From Thermodesulfobacteriota bacterium (lineage in GTDB: Bacteria; Desulfobacterota; Desulfobacteria; Desulfobacterales; UBA11574), in the NCBI GenBank assembly GCA_042573625.1, contig JBHPCZ010000001.1:12859-76858 (forward strand): a stretch of DNA of 64,000 bases, in the 5' to 3' direction. Shown piece by piece: positions 3,086 to 31,340 of the stretch. Both the position numbers and the translations under genes were made by a program. How positions within the stretch are numbered: position 1 is the first letter of the stretch; every line of letters begins with the position of its first letter. Under the pieces are notes generated by a model, which saw only the letters and a list, made by a program, of their open reading frames with translations, was not told the origin of the DNA and made no database searches.

Positions 3086-4093
3086 GTGGATACGAATATA
3101 GAACAGGTTAAGGAAGATGCATTAAAGGAACTTGAAACCGCATCTGACAAAAAACAAATCGATGATCTTTCTGTTCGATATTTGGGAAGAAAGGGCAAAG
3201 TTACTCAGCTGTTGAGGAGTGTTTCGAAACTTCCCGAAGAAAAACGACCCGAAGCGGGGAGAAAGGCAAATGAGATAAAGCGAACACTGGAAGGCGTATT
3301 CAAAGATGCCCGAAGAAAAATCGAAACTCGCCCCACAGAAAAAGATGACGGAATTGATGTTTCACTGCCCGGCAGAGCGCTTCGGCAGGGCTCCTTGCAT
3401 CCGATCACACAAATTACAAACCAGATATGCGACATATTATCAAAACTCGGGTTTGATATCTATGAGGGACCTGAAGTTGAAACAGACTACTACAATTTTG
3501 AAGCCCTGAATATTCCGAAAAATCATCCGGCCAGAGATATGCAGGATACGTTCTATATTTCAGAAGATGTCGTCCTGAGAACCCATACATCTCCGATTCA
3601 GGTCAGGATAATGGAAAAGCTTTCTCCGCCGGTTCGAGTGATAGCACCCGGCAAGGTCTATCGCTGCGATTCCGACCTGACGCACACCCCCATGTTTCAC
3701 CAGGTTGAAGGGCTCCTGGTGGATGAAAATATATCTTTTGGAGATTTGAAGGGAACGCTGACCACTTTTGTCCACCAGATGTTTGACGACCGGACCAGCC
3801 TCAGATTTCGCCCCAGTTTTTTCCCTTTTACCGAACCAAGTGCCGAGGTCGATATTCTTTGTGTCATTTGTCGGGGCAAAGGGTGCCGGGTTTGTTCACA
3901 GACAGGGTGGCTCGAAGTCCTTGGCTCCGGTATGGTTCATCCTGCGGTGTTTGAAAACGTCGGATACGACACAACCCGCTATACCGGTTTCGCTTTCGGG
4001 ATGGGCGTTGAGCGGATTGCCATGCTGAAATATGGAATTGATGATATTCGGAAATTCTTTGAAAATGATTTAAGATTTTTAAGGCAATTTTAA
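3086..4093 (+). CDS. pheS: phenylalanine--tRNA ligase alpha subunit
   Basis: 335-aa ORF (GTG start) with class II aaRS motifs (HPARDMQDTFY, RTHTSPIQ, FRPSFFPFTEPSAEVD, GFAFGMGVERIAM). Confidence 0.95.
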   Translation: MDTNIEQVKEDALKELETASDKKQIDDLSVRYLGRKGKVTQLLRSVSKLPEEKRPEAGRKANEIKRTLEGVFKDARRKIETRPTEKDDGIDVSLPGRALRQGSLHPITQITNQICDILSKLGFDIYEGPEVETDYYNFEALNIPKNHPARDMQDTFYISEDVVLRTHTSPIQVRIMEKLSPPVRVIAPGKVYRCDSDLTHTPMFHQVEGLLVDENISFGDLKGTLTTFVHQMFDDRTSLRFRPSFFPFTEPSAEVDILCVICRGKGCRVCSQTGWLEVLGSGMVHPAVFENVGYDTTRYTGFAFGMGVERIAMLKYGIDDIRKFFENDLRFLRQF

Positions 4094-4094
4094 A

Positions 4095-6515
4095 ATGAAG
4101 GTCAGTTTAAGCTGGTTAAGCGAATATGTTGATATTGAAATAAAAGCAAACGACCTGGCAGACGCCCTTACTATGGCCGGTCTTGAAGTTGAAACTGTTT
4201 CAGACCGCTATGATTACCTTAATCGTGTTGTTGTCGGTCGAGTTGCCGAAATTCGCCCGCATCCCAAAAATGACGCGCTGAAGCTATGCCGGGTAGAAAC
4301 CGGTGGCAGCACGATCTCAGTCGTCTGCGGTGCGCCCAATACAAAAGAAGACATGCTTGCACCATGTGCCTTTCCCGGCACGGTGTTGCCAAACGGAACC
4401 GTCCTCGAAAAAAGTCTGATTCGAGAAGAAGTGTCGGAAGGGATGCTTTGCAGCGAAATCGAATTGGGGTTGGGTACCGGAAGTGACGGTATCATGGAAC
4501 TCGGTCGGAATCTTTCAATCGGTGATCCGCTGAATCAAGCCCTTAATTTATCTGACACAGTATTCGAAATCGATTTGACGCCGAACAGACCGGATTGCCT
4601 CAGTGTTATTGGAATTGCTCGCGAAATAGCGGCAATTCAACAAACAAAGATTAAATACCCTGAGATTCACCTGCCGGAATCATCTGATGACATATCCGAA
4701 TATACCTCTGTTACAATAAACGACCCTGAATTATGCCCAAGATATGCCGCCAGTCTTATTTTTGACATCACTGTCGGGCCGTCTCCTTATTGGCTTCAGG
4801 ACCGTTTAATTTCAGTAGGTTTAAAACCGATCAACAATATTGTTGATATTACCAACTTTGTAATGATGGAAACCGGTCAGCCGCTCCACGCCTTTGACCT
4901 TGACCACCTTGCCGAGAACCGGATCATCGTACGCACAGCCGGTAAGGGAGAAGCTTTTATTACACTGGACGGGAAAGAACGCCGCCTTGACCCGGAAATG
5001 CTGATGATCTGCGATGGTAAAAAACCTGTCGCTATCGGGGGCGTTATGGGCGGGCTCAACTCGGAAGTTGAAAATTCTACGACAAAAATTCTTCTCGAGA
5101 GCGCATATTTCAACCCGGTCAGCATTAGAAAGACTTCAAAAAAATTAGGGTTAAATACAGACGCTTCGCACCGTTTTGAGCGCGGCGTCGATCCCGGCGG
5201 TACCCTTCGGGCATTACACCGGGCAACACAGCTCATTGCTGAAATCGGCAACGGCAAAATGGTTAAGGGCGTGATCGACGAATATCCGAACCCTGCCTCG
5301 GGAAAGACGATCATTCTTAGCGCCAAAGCCTTAAATCACCACCTGGGTACTCGCCTAAATTTGGCTGAAATCAATAACCATTTAAAATCGATTGAATTTG
5401 AAGTTAAAAAAATCGATGATGACAAACTCCAGGTTGTTCCTCCGTCATGCAGGGTCGATATCAGCAGGTTTGAAGACCTTTCAGAGGAAATTGCGCGTCT
5501 GTATGGCTATAACAATATCGAAACCACCTTTCCATCGATACCGGCTGAATCCAGACAGGCTTCAGAGAAGATTGTCTCAAGAGACCTTGCCAAACGATTG
5601 ATGATCGGATTGGGGTTTAACGAAGCAATCAATTACAGTTTTATCAGCAAATTGTCTGGTGATCGGCTTGAACTGGAACCGGATGATCCCAAAAGAAACA
5701 CTGTGGACATTTTAAATCCGTTGTCTGAAGACCAGTCTGTGTTGAGAACATCTTTGATACCCGGGCTGCTCGAAACAATGCATTACAATCTTTCGATGCA
5801 GAATAACAATGTCAAGCTGTTTGAGATCGGCAATGTCTTTTTTAACACCGGCCAGAAAGATGCTCAGCCTGATGAGGTTGAAATGTTTGCAGGACTCTGG
5901 ACAGGGCATAGGGTCGACGCTGCCTGGTTTTCCAAGGAGATCCATTGTGATTTTTATGACTTAAAAGGCGTTGTTGAAGAGCTTTTAAGAAATTTGGGCG
6001 GCATTACCGCCACATTTGCCCGAATACCGCCGGAATCCTGTTTTATCACAAGACCCGGATCCACGGCCCAGATTATTGTTGAAAACGAATGGGCGGGACT
6101 CATCGGAGAAGTACATCCAGCATTAATTCGGAATTACAATCTGAAACAGAAGACGTTTATTTTTGAACTCAATTTCGATCAGTTGATCGCCCATATTCAA
6201 GACCCTAAATCCACACAACCTCTCCCGAAATTTCCACCGACATCAAGGGATGTCACACTGATTGTCGATACGGACATTGAAGCGTATAATATTCTGAAAA
6301 GCGTTGAAAATCTCAATGAAGAACTGATTGAAGATATTCATCTCTTTGCTGTTTTTCAGGGTGACCCGGTTCCTGTGGGGAAAAAAAGTATTTCATTCAG
6401 AATAACCTACAGGTCTTCGACTGAAACTCTGGAAGATAACACAGTCAATCACCTTCACATGCAAATCGCTGACAAGGTTGTGAAAAAATTTAATGCAACA
6501 CTACCGAGTCTATAA
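4095..6515 (+). CDS. pheT: phenylalanine--tRNA ligase beta subunit
   Basis: 806-aa ORF starting 1 nt after the pheS stop. Carries the MKVSLSWL N-terminus, a tRNA-binding domain and B3/4, B5 and FDX-ACB-like regions. Confidence 0.95.
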   Translation: MKVSLSWLSEYVDIEIKANDLADALTMAGLEVETVSDRYDYLNRVVVGRVAEIRPHPKNDALKLCRVETGGSTISVVCGAPNTKEDMLAPCAFPGTVLPNGTVLEKSLIREEVSEGMLCSEIELGLGTGSDGIMELGRNLSIGDPLNQALNLSDTVFEIDLTPNRPDCLSVIGIAREIAAIQQTKIKYPEIHLPESSDDISEYTSVTINDPELCPRYAASLIFDITVGPSPYWLQDRLISVGLKPINNIVDITNFVMMETGQPLHAFDLDHLAENRIIVRTAGKGEAFITLDGKERRLDPEMLMICDGKKPVAIGGVMGGLNSEVENSTTKILLESAYFNPVSIRKTSKKLGLNTDASHRFERGVDPGGTLRALHRATQLIAEIGNGKMVKGVIDEYPNPASGKTIILSAKALNHHLGTRLNLAEINNHLKSIEFEVKKIDDDKLQVVPPSCRVDISRFEDLSEEIARLYGYNNIETTFPSIPAESRQASEKIVSRDLAKRLMIGLGFNEAINYSFISKLSGDRLELEPDDPKRNTVDILNPLSEDQSVLRTSLIPGLLETMHYNLSMQNNNVKLFEIGNVFFNTGQKDAQPDEVEMFAGLWTGHRVDAAWFSKEIHCDFYDLKGVVEELLRNLGGITATFARIPPESCFITRPGSTAQIIVENEWAGLIGEVHPALIRNYNLKQKTFIFELNFDQLIAHIQDPKSTQPLPKFPPTSRDVTLIVDTDIEAYNILKSVENLNEELIEDIHLFAVFQGDPVPVGKKSISFRITYRSSTETLEDNTVNHLHMQIADKVVKKFNATLPSL

Positions 6516-21374: not shown

Positions 21375-21510
21375 CTGCAAAAACTGAAATTCAACCTTAC
21401 ATCTCAAAATTTTAGTTCAAACTAAATCTGACACTATTCAGGTATCCATTACGTATCAAAGAATCCGTTACCATTTGATACTTGCAGATATCTGTACTTG
21501 TGGCCTGCCA

Positions 21511-21652
21511 AAAAACACTAATATATTGCATACGCATTCTTTATAGCCTGAAAACAAACCCCAGGTTAAAACTTCAATCCAAACATCCCACAATGTGGCA
21601 TTAACCGTTTGAAATAACATTCATTTTTGTTGACTCTCCGGTAACGTTGTGA
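21511..21652 (+). repeat. 5' promoter-region module, copy A (homologous to 30524-30669)
   Basis: Aligns by eye with copy B. Shares an exact 17-mer AAACATCCCACAATGTG (21581-21597 vs 30593-30609), the block TTCTTnATAGCCTrAAAAC, TAACCnnTTTGAA, and a TTGAC -35 box (21630-21635). Confidence 0.7.
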
Positions 21653-21711
21653 TTTAGAAACTTCTTTCTGAAACTATCACTGCGGTACATTTAGATTTGG
21701 AACCTACTGCT

Positions 21712-23907
21712 ATGAAACCGCTCCGGAGATTGCCACAGCCTGCCGACGCCATAATCCAGATTCTTATAGATAAGTCGTTTCTTTTTTTACTCTATAGAAC
21801 TGTTCTGCTTATTGTTTTTACCTTCTCTTTCGCACAGGCCGCCGAAGACCAGCCGGAGATACATCAGATGGAAGAGGTTACGGTAACCGCAACCCGGATG
21901 GAAAGAAAGGCCGTTGAAGTTCCGGCAAGCATTGCCGTTGTCGGGGAAAATGACATAAAAGACACCCGGATGTTTAACCTCAAAGAAGCACTGTTGGGCA
22001 TCCCCGGCGTTCTTATTGACACCCGCAACCAGGGCTACGATTCCCGACTCCTGATTCGGGGGGCCGGATTGAAAGCCAGGTACGGGGTGAGAGACATTAT
22101 GGTTTTGCTCAACGGCGTTCCGATTACTGATCCGGACAGCCTCTCCCGTCTGGATTTTATAGACACCCAGCTGATTCAAAGAATTGAGGTGGCCAAGGGC
22201 CCCAACTCCACCCTGTGGGGCGCTAATGCAGCCGGGGGCGTTATCAACATCATAACCAAAAATCCTCTGGACAGGCAGGGCGGCGTCTTTAAAATCGGTG
22301 CAGGGGACTATAACGCCCAAAATTATCATCTTTCCTATTCCGACGATCTGTCTGAGAACTTTTATTATACGGTAAGCGGAAGCCGCAGGCAGTCGGACAA
22401 TGACTGGCGTCGATGGAATGAGTTTTATACCAACCAGGGGGCTGTCCAGGCCGCTTATGTGTTTGAAGACGAATCTATCCTTGAAAACCACATCAGTTAT
22501 ACCAAAGCTTCACTGCAACTGCCCGGAAAATTGAACCAAACCCAGTTCGATCAGTACCAGCAAACGGGCGAAGCCCATGCGACCGATGGCCCCTGGCAGC
22601 ATTCGGGTAGATATTCTGAAACTTTCTTTTTCAGTTCGAAACTATCCAAAACCGTCGGCACTTTTGATTTCGAGCCCCTTTTATTTATCAACAGGTGGAC
22701 GCACCACCACCCTGTAACCGGAAGAATCAACGATTCCGATACACTCTCCTGCGGCACGGATATCCAGACAAACCTTCGGCATGCTTTCGGAAAAATGAAA
22801 GGGACGCTGACCGCCGGCGTTACCGCCCGGTTTGACAAGCAGGACACGGATTATTTTGAATATGCCGATGTGCTTAAGACCCCCGGCGGGAGAATTACTG
22901 CCACCCTTAGTGATACGCCCGGAAATTTGATCGAGATACAGAATCGCGGTGTCCAGCTTTACGGGGTGTATTTTCAGGAATCGATCCGGCCTTCAGATCG
23001 GTGGATTATCGACCTGGGTGTTCGGTTTGACATCATTGATTTCGATATCGATGGGACAAAAAGGGCCGAATACGACTATAGTACCGGAACGTACGTAGAA
23101 TGTCCGGACGCCGGTCTGACGAATTGCGGAAATTATCAGATCAATAAAACTTTTAACGACTTCAGCCCACGGGTCGGAGCGGTGGTCAAGCTGTCGGAAA
23201 GCACAAATTTGTATGGCAATATTTCCAAGGGCATTCAGACGCCCACCGAAGGAGAGATCAGCGAAAATCCCGATCTGGAACTTGTGGAAGTTGAAAACTA
23301 TGAAGTCGGTGTCAAACTGAGATATCCCGGATGCTCCCTGGAAACGGCCCTGTATTACTCTCCGGTAAAAAATGAAATCGTTAAGGTCGTTCAAGAAGAC
23401 GGCGATACCGAATACAGCAACGCCGGCAGGACCAGAAAAACAGGCTTTGAGCTGACAGGGTCCCTGGAGTTGATACCCCGGTTGACCCTGGGCGCCGCGT
23501 ATTCATTTACGCATTACACGTTCGAAGAATTCACAGAAACCATCAGGGTGGGTGCCTCGACGCAAAATATCGACCGAAGCGGCAACCGGCTGCCGTATAT
23601 CCCCGAGCATCAGTACTCGTTTTTTGCCGCTTACCGACATCCGTCGGGGTTGAAGTTCAAGCTTCAATCCCATACCTGGGGGTCCTATTACACCGACAAC
23701 GCCAATACCGAGAAATACAACGGATATGCTTTTATCACCGGCGTCATGATCGGGTATGAATGGAAAGCATTCAATATTGGACTAAACATTGACAACCTGT
23801 TTGACGAACACTATGCCGTGGAAGTCGAAAAGGACAGCAGCGGAATAAAACGCTATACGCCGGCCGCACCGAGAAGTTTTATACTCCGGGTTTCATACAA
23901 TTTCTGA
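21712..23907 (+). CDS. TonB-dependent outer-membrane receptor
   Basis: Signal peptide ending SFAQA. Plug region (EVTVTATR...VPASIAVV...LLGIPGV...RGAG) and a beta-barrel ending in a C-terminal aromatic residue (RVSYNF). Confidence 0.85.
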   Translation: MKPLRRLPQPADAIIQILIDKSFLFLLYRTVLLIVFTFSFAQAAEDQPEIHQMEEVTVTATRMERKAVEVPASIAVVGENDIKDTRMFNLKEALLGIPGVLIDTRNQGYDSRLLIRGAGLKARYGVRDIMVLLNGVPITDPDSLSRLDFIDTQLIQRIEVAKGPNSTLWGANAAGGVINIITKNPLDRQGGVFKIGAGDYNAQNYHLSYSDDLSENFYYTVSGSRRQSDNDWRRWNEFYTNQGAVQAAYVFEDESILENHISYTKASLQLPGKLNQTQFDQYQQTGEAHATDGPWQHSGRYSETFFFSSKLSKTVGTFDFEPLLFINRWTHHHPVTGRINDSDTLSCGTDIQTNLRHAFGKMKGTLTAGVTARFDKQDTDYFEYADVLKTPGGRITATLSDTPGNLIEIQNRGVQLYGVYFQESIRPSDRWIIDLGVRFDIIDFDIDGTKRAEYDYSTGTYVECPDAGLTNCGNYQINKTFNDFSPRVGAVVKLSESTNLYGNISKGIQTPTEGEISENPDLELVEVENYEVGVKLRYPGCSLETALYYSPVKNEIVKVVQEDGDTEYSNAGRTRKTGFELTGSLELIPRLTLGAAYSFTHYTFEEFTETIRVGASTQNIDRSGNRLPYIPEHQYSFFAAYRHPSGLKFKLQSHTWGSYYTDNANTEKYNGYAFITGVMIGYEWKAFNIGLNIDNLFDEHYAVEVEKDSSGIKRYTPAAPRSFILRVSYNF

Positions 23908-23918
23908 GGCAGACGAAA

Positions 23919-24551
23919 ATGCGCTACCGAAAAATCATCACTCTTGTTGCGGCAGTGGCCATCTCCCTGGCCGCCGCCACATACCGCTTTGGGGATTCAG
24001 CACACAGCATCGGTCTTGTTTCGCTCAAAGGCGGTAAGGTTAGACATCCCTTTGTTCTGAAAGGCGGGCAAAAACATTACAGCCTGATTGGCACCGCAAC
24101 CGTTCTCCCGCCCTATCGGGGCGATGTTCGAATTTCGCTCGAAGGCTGGCCTGAAATTGATCATGATATTTTTTTATCCGGACCGGTGATCGATTTCGAC
24201 CTGCATAAACTTCCGGAGTTACGGGACCGCACTCTTTACGGCCTCAAACCCCAAGACAGGATTGCTCTCTGGGTTCGGATACATCCTCCCGTATTCGACC
24301 CGGTGTGCCGTATGAAGGTCGAAGACGGATTCTTGAAATATCATTACGGATCCCGGCAATATCATTTCTGCTCGAAAGCATGCAGAAATGCTTTTCTAAA
24401 ACAACCTGAAAAATATACCGGCAAAGAAGGTGCCTGCGGGAAATACAACCTTGTTTTTCACGATACCAGATCTGGCGCACCGGTCTTGAATATGCCCGTG
24501 AGGTTCAAGGGAAAGGATAAAATGGATGGAAAAAGCCGGCACTCTCACTGA
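23919..24551 (+). CDS. secreted YHS/TRASH-domain metal-binding protein
   Basis: N-terminal signal/anchor. C-terminal DPVCRMKVEDGFLKYHYGSRQYHFCSKACRNAF matches the YHS (TRASH-like) Cys pattern. Confidence 0.7.
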   Translation: MRYRKIITLVAAVAISLAAATYRFGDSAHSIGLVSLKGGKVRHPFVLKGGQKHYSLIGTATVLPPYRGDVRISLEGWPEIDHDIFLSGPVIDFDLHKLPELRDRTLYGLKPQDRIALWVRIHPPVFDPVCRMKVEDGFLKYHYGSRQYHFCSKACRNAFLKQPEKYTGKEGACGKYNLVFHDTRSGAPVLNMPVRFKGKDKMDGKSRHSH

Positions 24552-25353
24552 AAAAAGTTTTTTTATCCGACATCGATACTGGATCATCGCCTTTTCAGCG
24601 TTGCTGTTTCTTCCACCGCTGTCATTTGTTTTCCAGTTTACCGGGGACAGCAACTTCTGCGGCACCTGGTGCCCAAGGATGTTTTTCGTATGGCGTCGGG
24701 GAATGCCAATTGGCGCTTTTTTAGCCTCTTTTTTAAGGAGCTACATGGGCGTTGCCCTTCTGTTCGGGATTCTGATCAGTACCTTTTTTTACAGCAGATA
24801 CTGGTGCAGCCATCTGTGTCCCATCGGGGGAATTATGGAGCTTGGCAGCACGTTGGTTCCGCGGTTTATAAAAATTAATTTTTCAAAAATTCCAGCCCCC
24901 TATTTCCGATACGGCTACCTGTCAGTCTACTTGATTGCCGCAGCAGCCGGCATCGGCAGCTTGTGCTGCGCTTACTGTAATTTTGCTGCCGTACCGCGGA
25001 TGTTCGGCGCCTTGGTTTCACCGGCGGACGTGACCTACTTTTTGAGAAAGGCCGGGCTGATCAACCTGGGCCTGGTCGTTTTCCTGGGCTTTATGTCCAG
25101 AGGAGGCCGAGCATACTGCAACCTGATCTGTCCAGTGGGTGCTCTGGATGCACTGTCAAACCGGCTGGGCAATCGTTGGGGAAAAAGGGTCAGGATTTCC
25201 GCTGAGATCTGTGACAATTGCGGCCAGTGCGTGGACAACTGTCCGGTATGGGCCATTGAAACCGGTGAAAAGACAAAAATCGATCCACATTCCTGCATCC
25301 CCTGCAGAATTTGTGAAATCTCCTGTCATAAAAATGCTATTGTTTATGAATAG
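24526..25353 (+). CDS. membrane-bound 4Fe-4S protein (NapH/MauN-like polyferredoxin)
   Basis: Several TM segments. Cys motifs CSHLCP and CNLICP, plus a C-terminal 2x[4Fe-4S] ferredoxin (CDNCGQCVDNCP, CIPCRICEISCH). Confidence 0.75.
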   Translation: MEKAGTLTEKSFFIRHRYWIIAFSALLFLPPLSFVFQFTGDSNFCGTWCPRMFFVWRRGMPIGAFLASFLRSYMGVALLFGILISTFFYSRYWCSHLCPIGGIMELGSTLVPRFIKINFSKIPAPYFRYGYLSVYLIAAAAGIGSLCCAYCNFAAVPRMFGALVSPADVTYFLRKAGLINLGLVVFLGFMSRGGRAYCNLICPVGALDALSNRLGNRWGKRVRISAEICDNCGQCVDNCPVWAIETGEKTKIDPHSCIPCRICEISCHKNAIVYE

Positions 25354-25497: not shown

Positions 25498-25640
25498 TCT
25501 GAAAGTTAAAATATTTGTGATATTGTTTTCCGATAGGGCGAATCCATTTTGCGGGGTTTGCCTTTTTGATTTTTTGTGGATTACTCGATATGTATAATCG
25601 TGATAGCCCGGCTTCAGGTTGTGTTTATTGTAAGATATGC
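25498..25640 (+). repeat. 3' module, copy A (homologous to 31195-31340)
   Basis: Aligns with copy B across the terminator and about 60 nt beyond it. Shared blocks: TTGTGrTATyGTTTT, GGGCrAATCCATTT, GGGGTTTG, ATATGTA, GGCTTCAG and TTGTAAG. Confidence 0.7.
25537..25575 (+). terminator. rho-independent terminator inside 3' module A
   Basis: GGCGAATCC pairs with GGGTTTGCC (2 G-U pairs) around an 8-nt loop. Followed by TTTTTGATTTTTT. Lies between convergent genes. Confidence 0.6.
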
Positions 25641-26682: not shown

Positions 26683-27009
26683 TTACATGTCCGGGACAAA
26701 AATACAATTTTCGGAACCAAAATCGTCCTTCTCTTTAAACCGACAGGGCGGTACATACACGATACCGTCTATAATATAAAAGTAAGTAAATTCTAATCCT
26801 GCTGGCATCGTCACCAACCAGGTCTTTGAATCAATTTTTTCTACCTGATGAAGTTGATATCCATCCTCTGAGGATGCAAATGAGACAGTATGTGCTTCCG
26901 GTTTTTCTAGATATATGTGTGTCAAATTTCCTTTAACTTGACAAAAATGGCCTGTACACCCCATTAAGCTCATTGCCAGAAATAAAGTTGCTGTAATAGA
27001 ACGTTTCAT
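26683..27009 (-). CDS. lipoprotein with a CBM48/AMPK-beta GBD-like (E-set) domain
   Basis: Lipobox LMGC. The C-terminus KDDFGSENCIFVP parallels PDDFGGENSIFYV of the adjacent anti-sigma factor. Confidence 0.6.
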   Translation of the reverse strand: MKRSITATLFLAMSLMGCTGHFCQVKGNLTHIYLEKPEAHTVSFASSEDGYQLHQVEKIDSKTWLVTMPAGLEFTYFYIIDGIVYVPPCRFKEKDDFGSENCIFVPDM

Positions 27010-27569
27010 ATTTTGTTCTTTACATAAAATATGGAGTTCTCACCACCAAAATCATCTGGCTCCCGGGTTAGTATCGTTGGATCAGCGAATGGTTGCTGGC
27101 CCTCTATCAAATAGGTAAAGCGATGCTCTCCTTCTTTCAATTCATAGGTGACCTCCCAGTACCCGCTGTTGCCGATTTTTTGCATTGGAACTCGTTCCCA
27201 TTCTGTAAAGCTCCCCGTGATCTCTACCTGGCTGACATTCGGTTTGTAAACTACAAATCGTTTCACTACCGGGCTAGGTATTGGCGACGGTACGGTAAGA
27301 AACAGATAAATAACTGTGGCGGCCAATGCCGATGTAACCAGACCCATCGGCTGAAAAAAGGGACTGAAAAATCTTTTCCAGCTAAAAGGTGTCATCACTT
27401 TAGCGGATGGAATATGTTCGACAACATCACTCTGGATGAGTTTTTCCTGATGCAATAATTCTAATACCTCATCGGTAAAAGATTTATCTTTTTGCATGGT
27501 TTCAATAAAATCAATTTTGTCATCAACGTTCATCTCATTATCAATAAACATGCTGATATTATAATTCAT
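27006..27569 (-). CDS. anti-sigma factor, single TM, extracytoplasmic CBM48-like domain
   Basis: 4-nt overlap with the downstream gene and directly abuts the sigma gene. One TM segment (GLVTSALAATVIYLFLTV). The C-terminal ITGSFTEWERVPM...GYWEV...LKEGEHRFTYLIEG...ADP resembles the AMPK-beta glycogen-binding module. Confidence 0.65.
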   Translation of the reverse strand: MNYNISMFIDNEMNVDDKIDFIETMQKDKSFTDEVLELLHQEKLIQSDVVEHIPSAKVMTPFSWKRFFSPFFQPMGLVTSALAATVIYLFLTVPSPIPSPVVKRFVVYKPNVSQVEITGSFTEWERVPMQKIGNSGYWEVTYELKEGEHRFTYLIEGQQPFADPTILTREPDDFGGENSIFYVKNKI

Positions 27570-28046
27570 TTAATCCTCTCCTGCCTGAAGAATCTCTTTT
27601 AGCCTGATACGGGCTCGGTGAACTTTGACTTTTACATTAGCCTCACTTATTCCGATTATGCTTGCAATTTCCCTATATGATAGATCACTGCTAACCGTTA
27701 GAGCAAGGATGTCTCTTTGGTCTTTATTGAGTTTGTGCATGGCGGACAGCACATTACGATACGACTCCCGCACTAAAGTCAGCTGTTCGGGGTCAATCGT
27801 TGTATCTTCGATGTCGTTTTCTATTTCTTTGTTGTACTTTTTTTTGCGAGCATTGTCCCAGACGGCGTTCCTTGCAATGGTGAACAGCAACGAAACATTT
27901 TGTGTCTGTGGACCATATTTTTCCAGATAACGAGTGAAACTCTCCTGCATTATATCGCTGGATAGCTGATAGTTGCTGGTCAAACGCATCAGATAGCCGA
28001 ACAACTTATCTTTTTGAGTCCAGTAAAATGGACTAAATTTATCCAC
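27570..28046 (-). CDS. ECF-type RNA polymerase sigma factor
   Basis: 158 aa. Region 2 (SSDIMQESFTRYL) and region 4 HTH (LSYREIASIIGISEANVKVKVHRARIRLK). Confidence 0.85.
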   Translation of the reverse strand: MDKFSPFYWTQKDKLFGYLMRLTSNYQLSSDIMQESFTRYLEKYGPQTQNVSLLFTIARNAVWDNARKKKYNKEIENDIEDTTIDPEQLTLVRESYRNVLSAMHKLNKDQRDILALTVSSDLSYREIASIIGISEANVKVKVHRARIRLKEILQAGED

Positions 28047-29517: not shown

Positions 29518-29664
29518 ATGAAAAAACTTTTTTTGATCTTGGTAATCTTTGTATCGTTTACAGCGTTTGCTTTTGCCGGTGGTGACCAAAATCATGGCAG
29601 CAAGGGACAAGGCAGTACAGGTAGTGACGGACAAGGCCAAACAACCCAACAGCGAGGCGATTAA
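29518..29664 (+). CDS. small secreted Gly/Gln-rich peptide (48 aa), below the ORF-track length cutoff
   Basis: Hand translation: MKKLFLILVIFVSFTAFAFAGGDQNHGSKGQGSTGSDGQGQTTQQRGD. SD AGGAAAGG directly upstream. Classic signal peptide. Confidence 0.5.
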   Translation: MKKLFLILVIFVSFTAFAFAGGDQNHGSKGQGSTGSDGQGQTTQQRGD

Positions 29665-29791
29665 ATAATTCACTCAACAAAAAGGGGGATAAATGGAACT
29701 TGTGACGACGCCACTTCTTGAAAAATGGAAGGTGGAAAGTGCTGAGTTTCTGTGTGTACTGCCGTAAAAACAGGATTAGGGTTTCTTTTTT

Positions 29792-30010
29792 ATGATTAAT
29801 ATTGTCAGAAATAGAAGAGGTAGACGACCCAGAACAGCCAGACGGGCATCCTTAAGAGACAGGCGGGCATTCTTAAGAGACAGACGGGCATCCTTAATAG
29901 ATAGAAGGGCATTCTTATCTGTAGTCCGTATTCCTAATAGAAGAAGTGGAAGAGACAGAAGGAGTTGGTCTGACCGCAGAGGTGGCGTTGAACGCAGAAG
30001 TATTCACTAA
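29792..30010 (+). CDS. Arg-rich DRR-repeat small protein (coding status uncertain)
   Basis: 72-aa ORF containing RRASLRD RRAFLRD RRASLID RRAFLSV, then RRSGRD RRSWSD RRGGVE RRS. The RR periodicity continues past the DNA repeat. SD is weak. Confidence 0.4.
   Translation: MINIVRNRRGRRPRTARRASLRDRRAFLRDRRASLIDRRAFLSVVRIPNRRSGRDRRSWSDRRGGVERRSIH
29839..29943. repeat. tandem 21-bp repeats (4 good copies plus 1 degenerate)
   Basis: CAGACGGGCATCCTTAAGAGA / CAGGCGGGCATTCTTAAGAGA / CAGACGGGCATCCTTAATAGA / TAGAAGGGCATTCTTATCTGT / AGTCCGTATTCCTAATAGA. Confidence 0.85.
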
Positions 30011-30069
30011 TTGAAGTGAAACTAAATATCACTCCCAAGTGTCTTAGATAAAGGGTTTTGGAATTTACC

Positions 30070-30444
30070 ATGGATAGTAAGGAATTTAAAAGCTTCCGCC
30101 TAAAAATGAACAAGACGCAACACCAGGTGAGCCGTCTACTCGGAACGTCTATAAAGACTATACAAAGTTATGAACAGGGTTGTCGAAACATACCAAATCA
30201 CGCAGAGCGGCAGATGCTTTATCTAATTTCCAGGATGAAAGAAAGCCACAATACTCAAAAACCATGCTGGGTTATCAAACAATGTCCTCGATGGGTAAAA
30301 AATAAATGCCCGGCCTGGGAATTTGATTCGGGGGATTTATGCTGGTTTATTAATGGTACATATTGTGGTGGTAATGTTGTTGAGAGCTGGGAACAAAAAA
30401 TGAAACTTTGCCGGTCCTGTGAAGCTTTCTCATTCTTGAGCTAA
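30070..30444 (+). CDS. XRE-family HTH regulator with a C-terminal Cys/Trp-rich (two-CW-like) domain
   Basis: HTH is FRLKMNKTQHQVSRLLGTSIKTIQSYEQG. C-terminus is PCWVIKQCPRWVKNKCPAWEF..DLCWFINGTYCGG...CRSCEAF. ATG at 30070 preferred over the TTG at 30058. Confidence 0.75.
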   Translation: MDSKEFKSFRLKMNKTQHQVSRLLGTSIKTIQSYEQGCRNIPNHAERQMLYLISRMKESHNTQKPCWVIKQCPRWVKNKCPAWEFDSGDLCWFINGTYCGGNVVESWEQKMKLCRSCEAFSFLS

Positions 30445-30523
30445 CTCAAAAACACTTCTAATCATACAACGATACTTTCGATAATGGTTTGAAATCCTCT
30501 GTCCGAAACCTGTGTGTTCTGCA

Positions 30524-30669
30524 ATAAAACACACCAAATATTGTATTCGTCTTTCTTCATAGCCTAAAAACCTTGTACCACAACTCCTATAAAAACATCC
30601 CACAATGTGTGATAACCTATTTGAATTACTACATAAATTGTCATAATTTTCTTGACAACGTCACAATCC
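30524..30669 (+). repeat. 5' promoter-region module, copy B (homologous to 21511-21652)
   Basis: See copy A. Carries the exact 17-mer at 30593-30609. Confidence 0.7.
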
Positions 30670-30680
30670 TTGTTCATAAT
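30652..30680 (+). promoter_or_regulatory. sigma-70-type promoter
   Basis: TTGACA (30652-30657), a 17-nt spacer, then CATAAT (30675-30680). Lies about 120 nt upstream of the 30802 gene. Confidence 0.55.
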
Positions 30681-30721: not shown

Positions 30722-30808
30722 ATGAATTGTATCCCCTTTGATATCCCCTGCTTGCCATGGGGAGCGTCATTTAATTTAATCAGTAACAGAAAGGGGGCAG
30801 AATGTTAA
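30722..30808 (+). CDS. candidate upstream ORF / leader peptide (28 aa) overlapping the start of the next gene
   Basis: Hand translation: MNCIPFDIPCLPWGASFNLISNRKGAEC. AAGGGA lies 6 nt upstream. The stop TAA (30806-30808) overlaps the ATG at 30802. The region also folds into two hairpins. Confidence 0.3.
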   Translation: MNCIPFDIPCLPWGASFNLISNRKGAEC

Positions 30809-31152
30809 AAAAAATGTTCAAGATTATTTTTTTCGTTTTTCTGGTGGGGCTTTTGATTTCGCCGGCGTGGAGCTCAGACAACATCGTCATCGACACGGAT
30901 CGTAATTTAATTCTCGCTGGAAGCGGAGGAGGAGACCAAGACAGAGACCAAGACAGAAAGCGTGACGAATCTTGTAACGACCTCGCCCCTTACAACCCTG
31001 TTCATCCTTTAATTCTCGCTAGAGGAGGAAACGGTGGCAACGGCGGCGGCGGTGGCCACGGCGGCGGTGGCGGCGGCGATCAAAGCAGGGACAGGGACTG
31101 TGACGATGGTGACGGCCCTCAACCTGAAGGCCCTAACGGCCCCGGCACCTGA
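30802..31152 (+). CDS. secreted Gly/Asp/His-rich repeat protein
   Basis: Signal peptide ending PAWS. Internal duplication: LILAGSGGGDQDRDQDRKRDESCND versus LILARGGNGGNGGGGGHGGGGGGDQSRDRDCDDGD. SD GGGGG upstream. Confidence 0.65.
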   Translation: MLKKMFKIIFFVFLVGLLISPAWSSDNIVIDTDRNLILAGSGGGDQDRDQDRKRDESCNDLAPYNPVHPLILARGGNGGNGGGGGHGGGGGGDQSRDRDCDDGDGPQPEGPNGPGT

Positions 31153-31194
31153 GATTGTAACCCGTGACGGAACTTGCGACGACGCCACTTCTTA

Positions 31195-31340
31195 AAAACC
31201 TGAAAATGTTGTGGTATCGTTTTTCAATAAGGGCAAATCCATTTGATGGGGTTTGTCCTTTTATTTTTATGATATATGTAATCAGTAAGAGCAGGCTTCA
31301 GCCTGTGATATTTGTAAGTATCTGCAATAACCTGCAAATA
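31195..31340 (+). repeat. 3' module, copy B (homologous to 25498-25640)
   Basis: See copy A. Confidence 0.7.
31230..31267 (+). terminator. rho-independent terminator inside 3' module B
   Basis: GGGCAAATCC pairs with GGGTTTGTCC (2 G-U pairs) around an 8-nt loop. Followed by TTTTATTTTT. Confidence 0.6.

Follow-up and report, generated by a model that had tools for sequence, protein, structure and literature searches.

Two related intergenic modules and the operons that they precede

The DNA analysed here is a stretch of 64 000 nt from a Thermodesulfobacteriota bacterium (the window), to which all coordinates refer unless a fetched locus (L-number) is named. Two of its intergenic regions carry related sequences. 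Copy A lies between a GT4 glycosyltransferase gene and an operon headed by a TonB-dependent receptor gene, while copy B lies between the gene for an XRE/two-CW regulator, which ends 69 nt away, and a gene for a 116-aa secreted Gly/Asp-rich protein. The products of operon A were assigned by Pfam and NCBIfam; those of operon B gave no family matches. The features of the two loci are as follows.

21499–21634, + strand: module copy A, the full span alignable with copy B, with the −35 box at its end
21585–21601, unstranded: operator A, ATCCCACAATGTGGCAT, a 17-bp palindrome centred at 21593
21602–21613, + strand: TAACCGTTTGAA block, directly 3′ of operator A and at fixed spacing in A, B, L003, L008 and L039
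21614–21629, + strand: AT-rich tract of copy A, between the core and the −35 box
21630–21658, + strand: putative promoter of operon A (TTGACT, 17-nt spacer, weak −10 TTTAGA)
21647–21654: half-site TTGTGATT in the spacer of the operon A promoter
21712–25353, + strand: operon A, encoding the TonB-dependent receptor (21712–23907), a YHS-domain protein (23919–24551) and a NapH-like 4Fe-4S protein (24526–25353)
25507–25578, + strand: 3′ terminator element at the end of operon A
30070–30444, + strand: XRE helix-turn-helix plus two-CW (Cys-rich) regulator gene (NCBIfam NF045718, 4.2e-12); its product is the candidate palindrome binder
30513–30656, + strand: module copy B, the full span alignable with copy A
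30576–30583, + strand: extra half-site TACCACAA, which precedes the left half of operator B by 22 bp
30597–30613, unstranded: operator B, ATCCCACAATGTGTGAT, centred at 30605
30613–30625, + strand: TAACCTATTTGAA block of copy B, read from the sequence
30652–30680, + strand: predicted promoter of operon B (TTGACA, 17 nt, CATAAT; 11/12 to consensus)
30659–30666: half-site CGTCACAA in the spacer of the operon B promoter
30733–31152, + strand: operon B, a possible 25-aa Cys-containing small ORF (30733–30808) overlapping the 116-aa gene (30802–31152)
31201–31273, + strand: second copy of the 3′ terminator element, at the end of operon B

Local alignment of one entire intergenic region with the other gave a score of 65 for copy A (+ strand) against copy B (+ strand), as compared with 20.9 ± 2.7 for 1000 dinucleotide shuffles, of which the maximum was 37 and none reached 65; BLASTN returned two colinear HSPs (E 2.6e-4 and 1e-3). 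The similarity of ~140 bp proposed in the original prediction, which was made by inspection of the sequence, is therefore real. As that prediction claimed, a 17-mer, AAACATCCCACAATGTG, is exact in both copies (21581–21597 and 30593–30609); it has no other site in the window when up to three mismatches are allowed, and an nhmmer search of the 64 kb with a profile of the A/B pair found no third copy. The other blocks that it quoted are also present: TTCTTTATAGCCTGAAAAC (21537–21555 in copy A), TAACC..TTTGAA, whose TAAC block lies 1 nt out of register in copy B relative to copy A, and the TTGAC boxes at 21630 and 30652. The sequence CCACAATGTGG occupies 21588–21598 in copy A, and its counterpart in copy B is CCACAATGTGT at 30600–30610. 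The similarity is confined to intergenic DNA and ends before coding sequence is reached, and the flanking genes are unrelated; a duplication including coding sequence, which the original prediction had named as the competing explanation, is thus excluded.

Conservation of the module in other genomes is much narrower. The L003 locus, with a TonB protein 86% identical to that of the window (the gene is 87% identical in nucleotides), retains CCACAATGTAGCACTAACTGTTTGAA and the TTGAC promoter; in its core, 29 of 35 positions agree with copy A; to the left of this the sequence has decayed, and 47 of 83 positions are identical, with many gaps. The constrained part amounts to ~35 bp, namely the 17-bp palindrome plus the TAAC..TTTGAA block. 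The predicted conserved module therefore holds good as a ~140-bp similarity between A and B, but only ~35 bp of it are conserved outside the source genome.

Loci L001 and L002, in which the TonB protein is 89% identical and the gene order is that of operon A, carry a fragment of a Y1 transposase (IS200/RAYT-like) gene (L001 9680–9886, L002 1024–1230) in place of everything upstream of CATTTTTTGTTGAC. Despite the loss of the core, the −35 box and everything downstream of it are intact, which supports TTGAC as a promoter element, with the core lying upstream of it. In this closest relative, the transposase fragment in effect marks a natural deletion that uncouples the TonB operon from the operator.

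More distant occurrences were sought with a composite-core pattern (CCACAATGT-N11-TTTGAA plus three further fixed bases) in 596 Gb of genomes and a metagenome collection. Scans for CCACAATGTNNNANNANCNNTTTGAA yielded 22 matches in genomes and 47 in metagenomes, nearly all of them chance matches or a conserved coding stretch of a Bacteroidota gene; the only real relatives were L008, a Desulfobacterales chromosome, and its ortholog L039. Since the composite pattern occurs in this one further lineage only, the full module architecture is rare. In L008 and L039 the core is followed by TTGACA-N17-CAnAAT, upstream of split YeeE/YedE sulfur-transporter genes. Conservation between these two loci starts exactly at the left edge of the palindrome and runs on through the region to the start codon.

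These comparisons bear on whether the 140-bp similarity is simply a neutral relic of a recent intergenic duplication or gene conversion, with no shared regulatory function. The left ~70 bp would suit such an origin, being closer between A and B (57/83 for the left 83 nt) than between A and its ortholog L003 although the TonB genes are 87% identical, as would the absence of the whole upstream part from L001 and L002; moreover, we estimate the probability that an exact 17-mer arises by chance within a ~70%-identical 140-bp alignment at ~0.1. Nevertheless, the core is kept in L003, L008 and L039, the palindrome recurs at unrelated loci of other genomes, and a weight matrix trained on foreign sites picks exactly the two sites in the window (see below). 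As an account of the entire module, a neutral relic is very unlikely. It probably holds for the left half only, where the sequence comparisons suggest that the ~70 bp shared by A and B probably reflect copying of a promoter region within the lineage rather than conserved function.

A function at the RNA level, the module being transcribed as a small RNA or as a riboswitch-like 5′ leader common to both operons, would account for the conservation that continues to the start codon in L008/L039, and the promoters on which we place the transcription starts are predictions. However, Rfam recognized only a tRNA in the whole window at the gathering threshold and nothing in or near the modules at permissive thresholds, while folding of both copies on both strands was no better than that of shuffles (z-scores −1.4, +0.3, +0.9 and +0.6) and gave no shared fold; neither a conserved structure nor a known family was thus found for the module as a cis-regulatory RNA. 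Furthermore, L001 keeps TTGAC and everything downstream but not the core, and elsewhere the palindrome sits inside −35/−10 spacers, which is a DNA-level logic. An RNA is most improbable, in agreement with the original view that the module is not a leader RNA.

The Y1 transposase fragment at the equivalent place in L001 and L002, the lineage-specific left part of the module and the common repeated 3′ element in which both operons end might instead betray a small mobile or repetitive element (MITE- or REP-like) inserted upstream of the two operons. Against this, the 64 kb contain no more than two copies, which were found to have neither terminal inverted repeats nor target duplications in common, a plasmid BLAST with the module gave no match, and the left block ATAGCCTRAAAAC is absent from all 88 fetched loci, whether related or control. 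The inverted repeats or hairpin, high copy number and target duplications of MITE/REP elements are therefore not in evidence in the window or the fetched loci, and we rate insertion of such an element as improbable as an RNA.

The putative operator palindrome and its position relative to the predicted promoters

Copy A contains the palindrome CCACA-A-TGTGG, as originally described, but the 11-bp reading, on which the right half of copy B was given as TGTGT, is too narrow. Read over 17 bp (AT..CACA-W-TGTG..AT), copy A is ATCCCACA-A-TGTGGCAT and copy B is ATCCCACA-A-TGTGTGAT, with complementary bases at 7 of 8 positions per half in both, so that copy B is also a good palindrome. Those XRE-family regulators that have been characterised act as dimers on dyad operators, and each copy contains a dyad-symmetric site within the ~14–20 bp that we looked for in an XRE operator.

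The centre of the operator lies 37 bp upstream of TTGAC in copy A and 47 bp upstream in copy B, bearing out the claim that conservation lies mostly upstream of the −35 box; relative to the predicted starts, the centres are at ~−72 and ~−82, respectively. When related loci are included, two spacing classes emerge, of 37 bp (A, L003) and 46–48 bp (B, L008, L039 and one L075 site), which differ by roughly one turn of the helix; an AT-rich tract separates the site from the −35 box. The argument from helical phase is a weak one, as the six upstream-type sites known come from four independent promoters.

The two promoters differ in quality. A consensus promoter scan did not call that of operon A, whose −10 is poor, whereas that of operon B is near consensus. 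The half-site scan placed one half-site in each promoter spacer (TTGTGATT and CGTCACAA), and at the position of the former a full operator is found in other genomes. L003 has CCACAAC at the same offset as the extra half-site upstream of operator B. The AT-rich tract of copy A overlaps a Fur-box-like sequence, AATAACATTCATT, at 21612–21624. The Fur box has a 19-bp consensus, GATAATGATAATCATTATC; L003 has the exact 13-nt core AATGATAATCATT and copy A agrees at 10 of 13 positions, in a comparison with this consensus by eye.

Several other readings of the region were tried by eye and rejected. For a sigma-54 promoter, GG and GC are wrongly spaced, and three of the four copies lack the GG; for CRP/FNR, the spacing of the half-sites is wrong. 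A leftward promoter via TTCAAA would have a 20-nt spacer and run antisense into genes, an extended −10 promoter that overlaps the palindrome would lack the last T of its −10 in every copy, and for an ECF-type promoter there is no consistent −35/−10 pair. No ECF-type promoter was recognized in the modules; an ECF sigma factor gene (27570–28046) lies between them on the − strand, within 27006–28046, together with the downstream gene for an AMPK1_CBM/CBM48-domain protein (27006–27569). An IHF site at TAAC-N4-TTGAW is a possibility only: 8 of 9 positions fit, by eye, in three of four copies, and the consensus is weak. Some 100 bp upstream of operator A there is a further palindrome, CAGATATCTG (21483–21492), and a similar island, TGGCAAGATATnTGnAATCAA, lies ~35 bp upstream of the operator in L008 (about 3120–3145, − strand) and L039, between which it is conserved; these may be sites for a second factor, or chance.

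Association of the palindrome with genes of the regulator family

The regulator encoded at 30070–30444 is the sole two-CW protein of the window. It is identical to MFC1811100.1 of NCBI, from a Thermodesulfobacteriota metagenome-assembled genome, and MFC1813368.1 is an 85% identical paralog. The family comprises 1180 clusters (at 90% identity) with E ≤ 1e-5, mostly from Desulfobacterota-type metagenomes, of which the best 120 are 56–84% identical to the window regulator; in viral contigs, no match to the regulator was found. Among 57 aligned homologues, seven cysteines of the C-terminal two-CW domain are invariant and the helix-turn-helix residues largely so (G25, S27, K29, Y34, E35, Q36 and R39 completely). 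An XRE regulator with conserved DNA-reading residues is therefore encoded close to the sites. In the AlphaFold model, the N-terminal XRE-type helix-turn-helix has a pLDDT above 90, and the structures most similar to it are those of Aca2, restriction-modification controller (C) proteins, HigA2, HipB and ClgR. The Cys-rich C-terminal half was modelled with a confidence too low for comparison of folds, and the two-CW domain had no match among solved structures. A literature search found no paper on the two-CW domain, the family existing only as an NCBIfam domain model, nor did a search of the bacterial literature find the motif CCACAWTGTGG (W = A or T).

Contigs of six regulator homologues were fetched, giving seven independent regulator genes, which were either confirmed as two-CW or are homologues of 56–65% identity. 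The sites upstream of these genes are as follows.

L073: CTACAATGTGT
L075: CCACATTGTGT
L076: CCACAATGTGG
L083, two regulator genes: CCACAATGTAG and CCACATTGTGG
L086: CCACGTAGTGT, a three-mismatch variant
L087: CCACAATGTGG

Six of the seven genes have CCACAWTGTGG 54–173 nt upstream of the start codon. A match to CCACAATGTGG with at most one mismatch, on either strand, is present in five of the seven upstream regions, as compared with a shuffle expectation of 1.3 per 64 kb, or ~0.004 per 200 nt, for which a binomial estimate gives ~2e-11. The usual layout is TTGACA, 6 nt, CCACAWTGTGG and a −10, the site filling the −35/−10 spacer, and altogether nine sites fill or overlap the spacer 3′ of a TTGAC-like (TTGAC/TTGAT) −35 box in promoters predicted from the consensus. 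Counting the variant, all seven regulator genes have a site at their own predicted promoter, as expected of an XRE operator. The palindrome, alone among the parts of the module, is conserved across genomes and is tightly associated with the genes of this regulator family, and its overlap with the promoters predicted there is the layout of autorepression.

The palindrome is not restricted to regulator genes. Further copies are found in the promoters of neighbouring genes, namely a DUF5981/ferredoxin/cytochrome c3 operon and a Usp/GAF pair, in the promoter of a gene for a metallo-beta-lactamase-fold protein in L001, and in those of two short terminator-ended units in L073. The latter (3990–4130 and 4155–4270) consist of tandem promoters, AAAAACATCTTGACATATCAC(A/T)TTGTGG, with the operator in each spacer and an intrinsic terminator ~90 nt further on; these units are candidates for regulator-controlled small RNAs or micro-peptides. 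With a palindrome at six of seven regulator genes and at other genes besides, the motif is enriched upstream of genes in related genomes, the lack of which would have spoken against the original prediction.

In order to score the window with information from elsewhere, a 21-nt weight matrix was built from 12 sites outside it (symmetrised consensus AAATGCCACAATGTGGCATTT). Applied to the 64 kb, this foreign-trained matrix ranked operator A first (22.9 bits) and operator B second (15.8 bits), the next best match scoring 9.7 bits. The sites of L003, L008 and L039, which were outside the training set, scored 19.0, 22.2 and 22.2 bits, and 444 kb of unrelated control DNA contained two matches of at least 15.4 bits and none of at least 17.

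It does not follow directly that the regulator binds the palindrome, which might be the operator of a different transcription factor; the two-CW regulator genes would then be among the targets of that factor, and the regulator would adjoin copy B only incidentally. The link rests on association, the foreign sites come from loci that were picked through the regulator gene, and L001, L003 and L008 carry sites although the DNA fetched around them contains no complete two-CW gene. In addition, no good palindrome precedes the regulator gene of the window itself, which has upstream only ATCAC-N6-GTGT at 30028–30042 with the wrong spacing and is in this respect unlike six of its seven homologues. On the other hand, a site or its variant is present at the promoters of all seven regulator genes in contexts that otherwise differ, for which autoregulation is the simplest reading. 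The motif fits neither the half-site spacing of CRP/FNR (5-N6-5) nor the Fur consensus, while the regulator has the XRE-type helix-turn-helix fold, characterised members of which bind dyads of such a size. A different factor is therefore unlikely, and the adjacent XRE/two-CW regulator, originally put forward as one candidate among others, is by its family-wide association with the palindrome the best candidate for the predicted binder.

A proposed regulatory circuit

We consider it likely that the two modules are sigma-70-type promoter regions whose conserved heart is an operator of the adjacent XRE/two-CW regulator, which would co-control both operons. The shared transcription-factor binding region of the original prediction is to this extent supported computationally by the recurrence of the palindrome at six of seven foreign regulator genes and at other promoters. 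A dimer of the regulator would bind the 17-bp palindrome ATnCCACA-W-TGTGGnAT and thereby control the TonB-receptor/YHS/NapH-like operon together with the small secreted-protein operon, and the association described above suggests that it represses its own promoter in most genomes.

The palindromes in the window lie upstream of the promoters rather than inside them, from where the bound regulator would act on RNA polymerase. The 10-bp difference in spacing between A and B would place the two sites on one and the same helical face, and the one-turn spacing classes together with the AT-rich tract favour a stereospecific action on the polymerase. Our best guess is activation of the class I type. 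Class I activator sites of the CRP type, which depend on the alpha C-terminal domain of RNA polymerase, are centred near −61.5, −71.5 or −82.5, and the palindromes are centred at ~−72 (A, L003) and ~−82 (B, L008, L039, L075) from the predicted starts, with an AT-rich tract between site and −35 box. Unlike in CRP/FNR class I control, the motif and the protein family are unrelated and the same palindrome is found inside promoters elsewhere. Repression would be nearly as likely, either by cooperation with the weak half-site in the spacer or by blocking of the AT-rich upstream tract. Repression by looping to the spacer half-site would be compatible with A and B; inspection by eye of the L008 and L075 promoter spacers showed no half-site of this kind, and we have set the idea aside.

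As a kind of element, a dyad operator in a promoter is ordinary, and the closest parallels to the proposed circuit are XRE-family operators (phage 434/P22 cI–Cro type, C-boxes, Aca2 sites), with which it shares a dyad of ~17 bp suited to a helix-turn-helix dimer and a site in the regulator's own promoter. The modelled helix-turn-helix of the window regulator superposes on C.BclI, C.Esp1396I, Aca2 and HigA2. The sites of C-proteins activate or repress depending on their position. In contrast to these systems, the window regulator carries C-terminally a two-CW domain (NF045718) whose seven cysteines are invariant, and the putative targets are chromosomal housekeeping-type operons rather than phage, toxin–antitoxin or restriction-modification modules.

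The signal may be one of Fe-S, sulfur, redox or metal status, sensed by the Cys-rich domain, because of the invariant cysteines and of the neighbours of regulator homologues; these include NifU/NifS, MnmA, thioredoxin, Rrf2, MOSC and Hdr-like CCG proteins and an O-acetylhomoserine sulfhydrylase with MetX/MetW. IscR (Rrf2 family), a cysteine-ligated Fe-S sensor with a regulon that it both activates and represses, serves here as a working analogy only. Both proteins combine a Cys-rich sensor with a DNA-binding domain; autoregulation, here predicted from site positions, is common to both; the positions of the sites imply both promoter-overlapping and upstream modes of action; and homologues of the window regulator adjoin NifU/NifS, MnmA, thioredoxin, MOSC, sulfhydrylase and Hdr-like genes. 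Unlike IscR, the window regulator has an XRE helix-turn-helix in place of the Rrf2 winged helix, its motif is different, and cluster binding by its two-CW domain is hypothetical.

More tentatively, and with somewhat less than even confidence, we suggest that the XRE/two-CW family as a whole uses CCACAWTGTGG as its operator and would then govern an unrecognised cysteine-based Fe-S/sulfur/metal sensor regulon in sulfate reducers, with the operons in the window as new members. If this were true, the regulon would be analogous to those of IscR or CymR, and the secreted Gly/Asp/His-rich protein and the TonB/YHS/ferredoxin operon would be added to it. Since homologues adjoin genes for Fe-S assembly, tRNA thiolation, sulfur assimilation and Hdr-like proteins, and the motif precedes a YeeE/YedE transporter, it could define a regulon of sulfur, Fe-S or metal homeostasis in the Desulfobacterota, where such regulation is poorly mapped. 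The window and the related loci together give the unstudied two-CW family a candidate binding motif, target promoters and a predicted autoregulatory layout, and make it directly accessible to EMSA, DAP-seq and reporter fusions.

The two module-led operons also resemble each other at their ends. Each is closed by a 3′ element of ~70 nt, TTGTGrTATCGTTTTTCAATAAGGGCAAATCC-loop-GGGGTTTGyCCTTTT, which forms a strong terminator hairpin and whose conserved 5′ flank resembles an operator half-site. The window contains just these two elements, closing exactly these two operons. Other copies were found in L008 (1663–1736, − strand), L073 (5088–5160 and 3526–3564) and L039 (1004–1070, − strand). Those of L008 and L073 also end operator-carrying units and the gene upstream of that in L039 is off the contig, so that in the fetched DNA every 3′ element with a visible upstream gene ends a unit bearing an operator at its start. 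None was found in 444 kb of control loci, Rfam gave no match at permissive thresholds, and the TonB operon of L001, which has no operator, is not followed by the element either. On this sequence evidence, the distribution hints at paired 5′ and 3′ control elements.

Some minor features of the DNA around copy B were also recorded. The possible 25-aa ORF (MNCIPFDIPCLPWGASFNLISNRKG..., 30733–30808) lies in a hairpin-rich 5′ region and has a plausible ribosome-binding site; translational coupling to the 116-aa gene is suggested by the overlap of its stop codon with the start of that gene (ATGTTAA). An Arg-rich 72-aa ORF, RRASLRDRRAFLRDRRASLIDRRAFL (29792–30010), which immediately precedes the regulator gene, contains a 21-bp tandem repeat (29833–29916) and gave no family match. 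A 30-nt repeat, GGAACTTGyGACGACGCCACTTCTTrAAAA, is present at 29695–29724 and 31169–31198 (93% identical), in each case just 3′ of a gene for a small secreted Gly-rich protein (29518–29664 and 30802–31152); it could be the conserved start of a small ORF (M-ELVTTPLLEK / ELATTPLLKN) or an RNA element.
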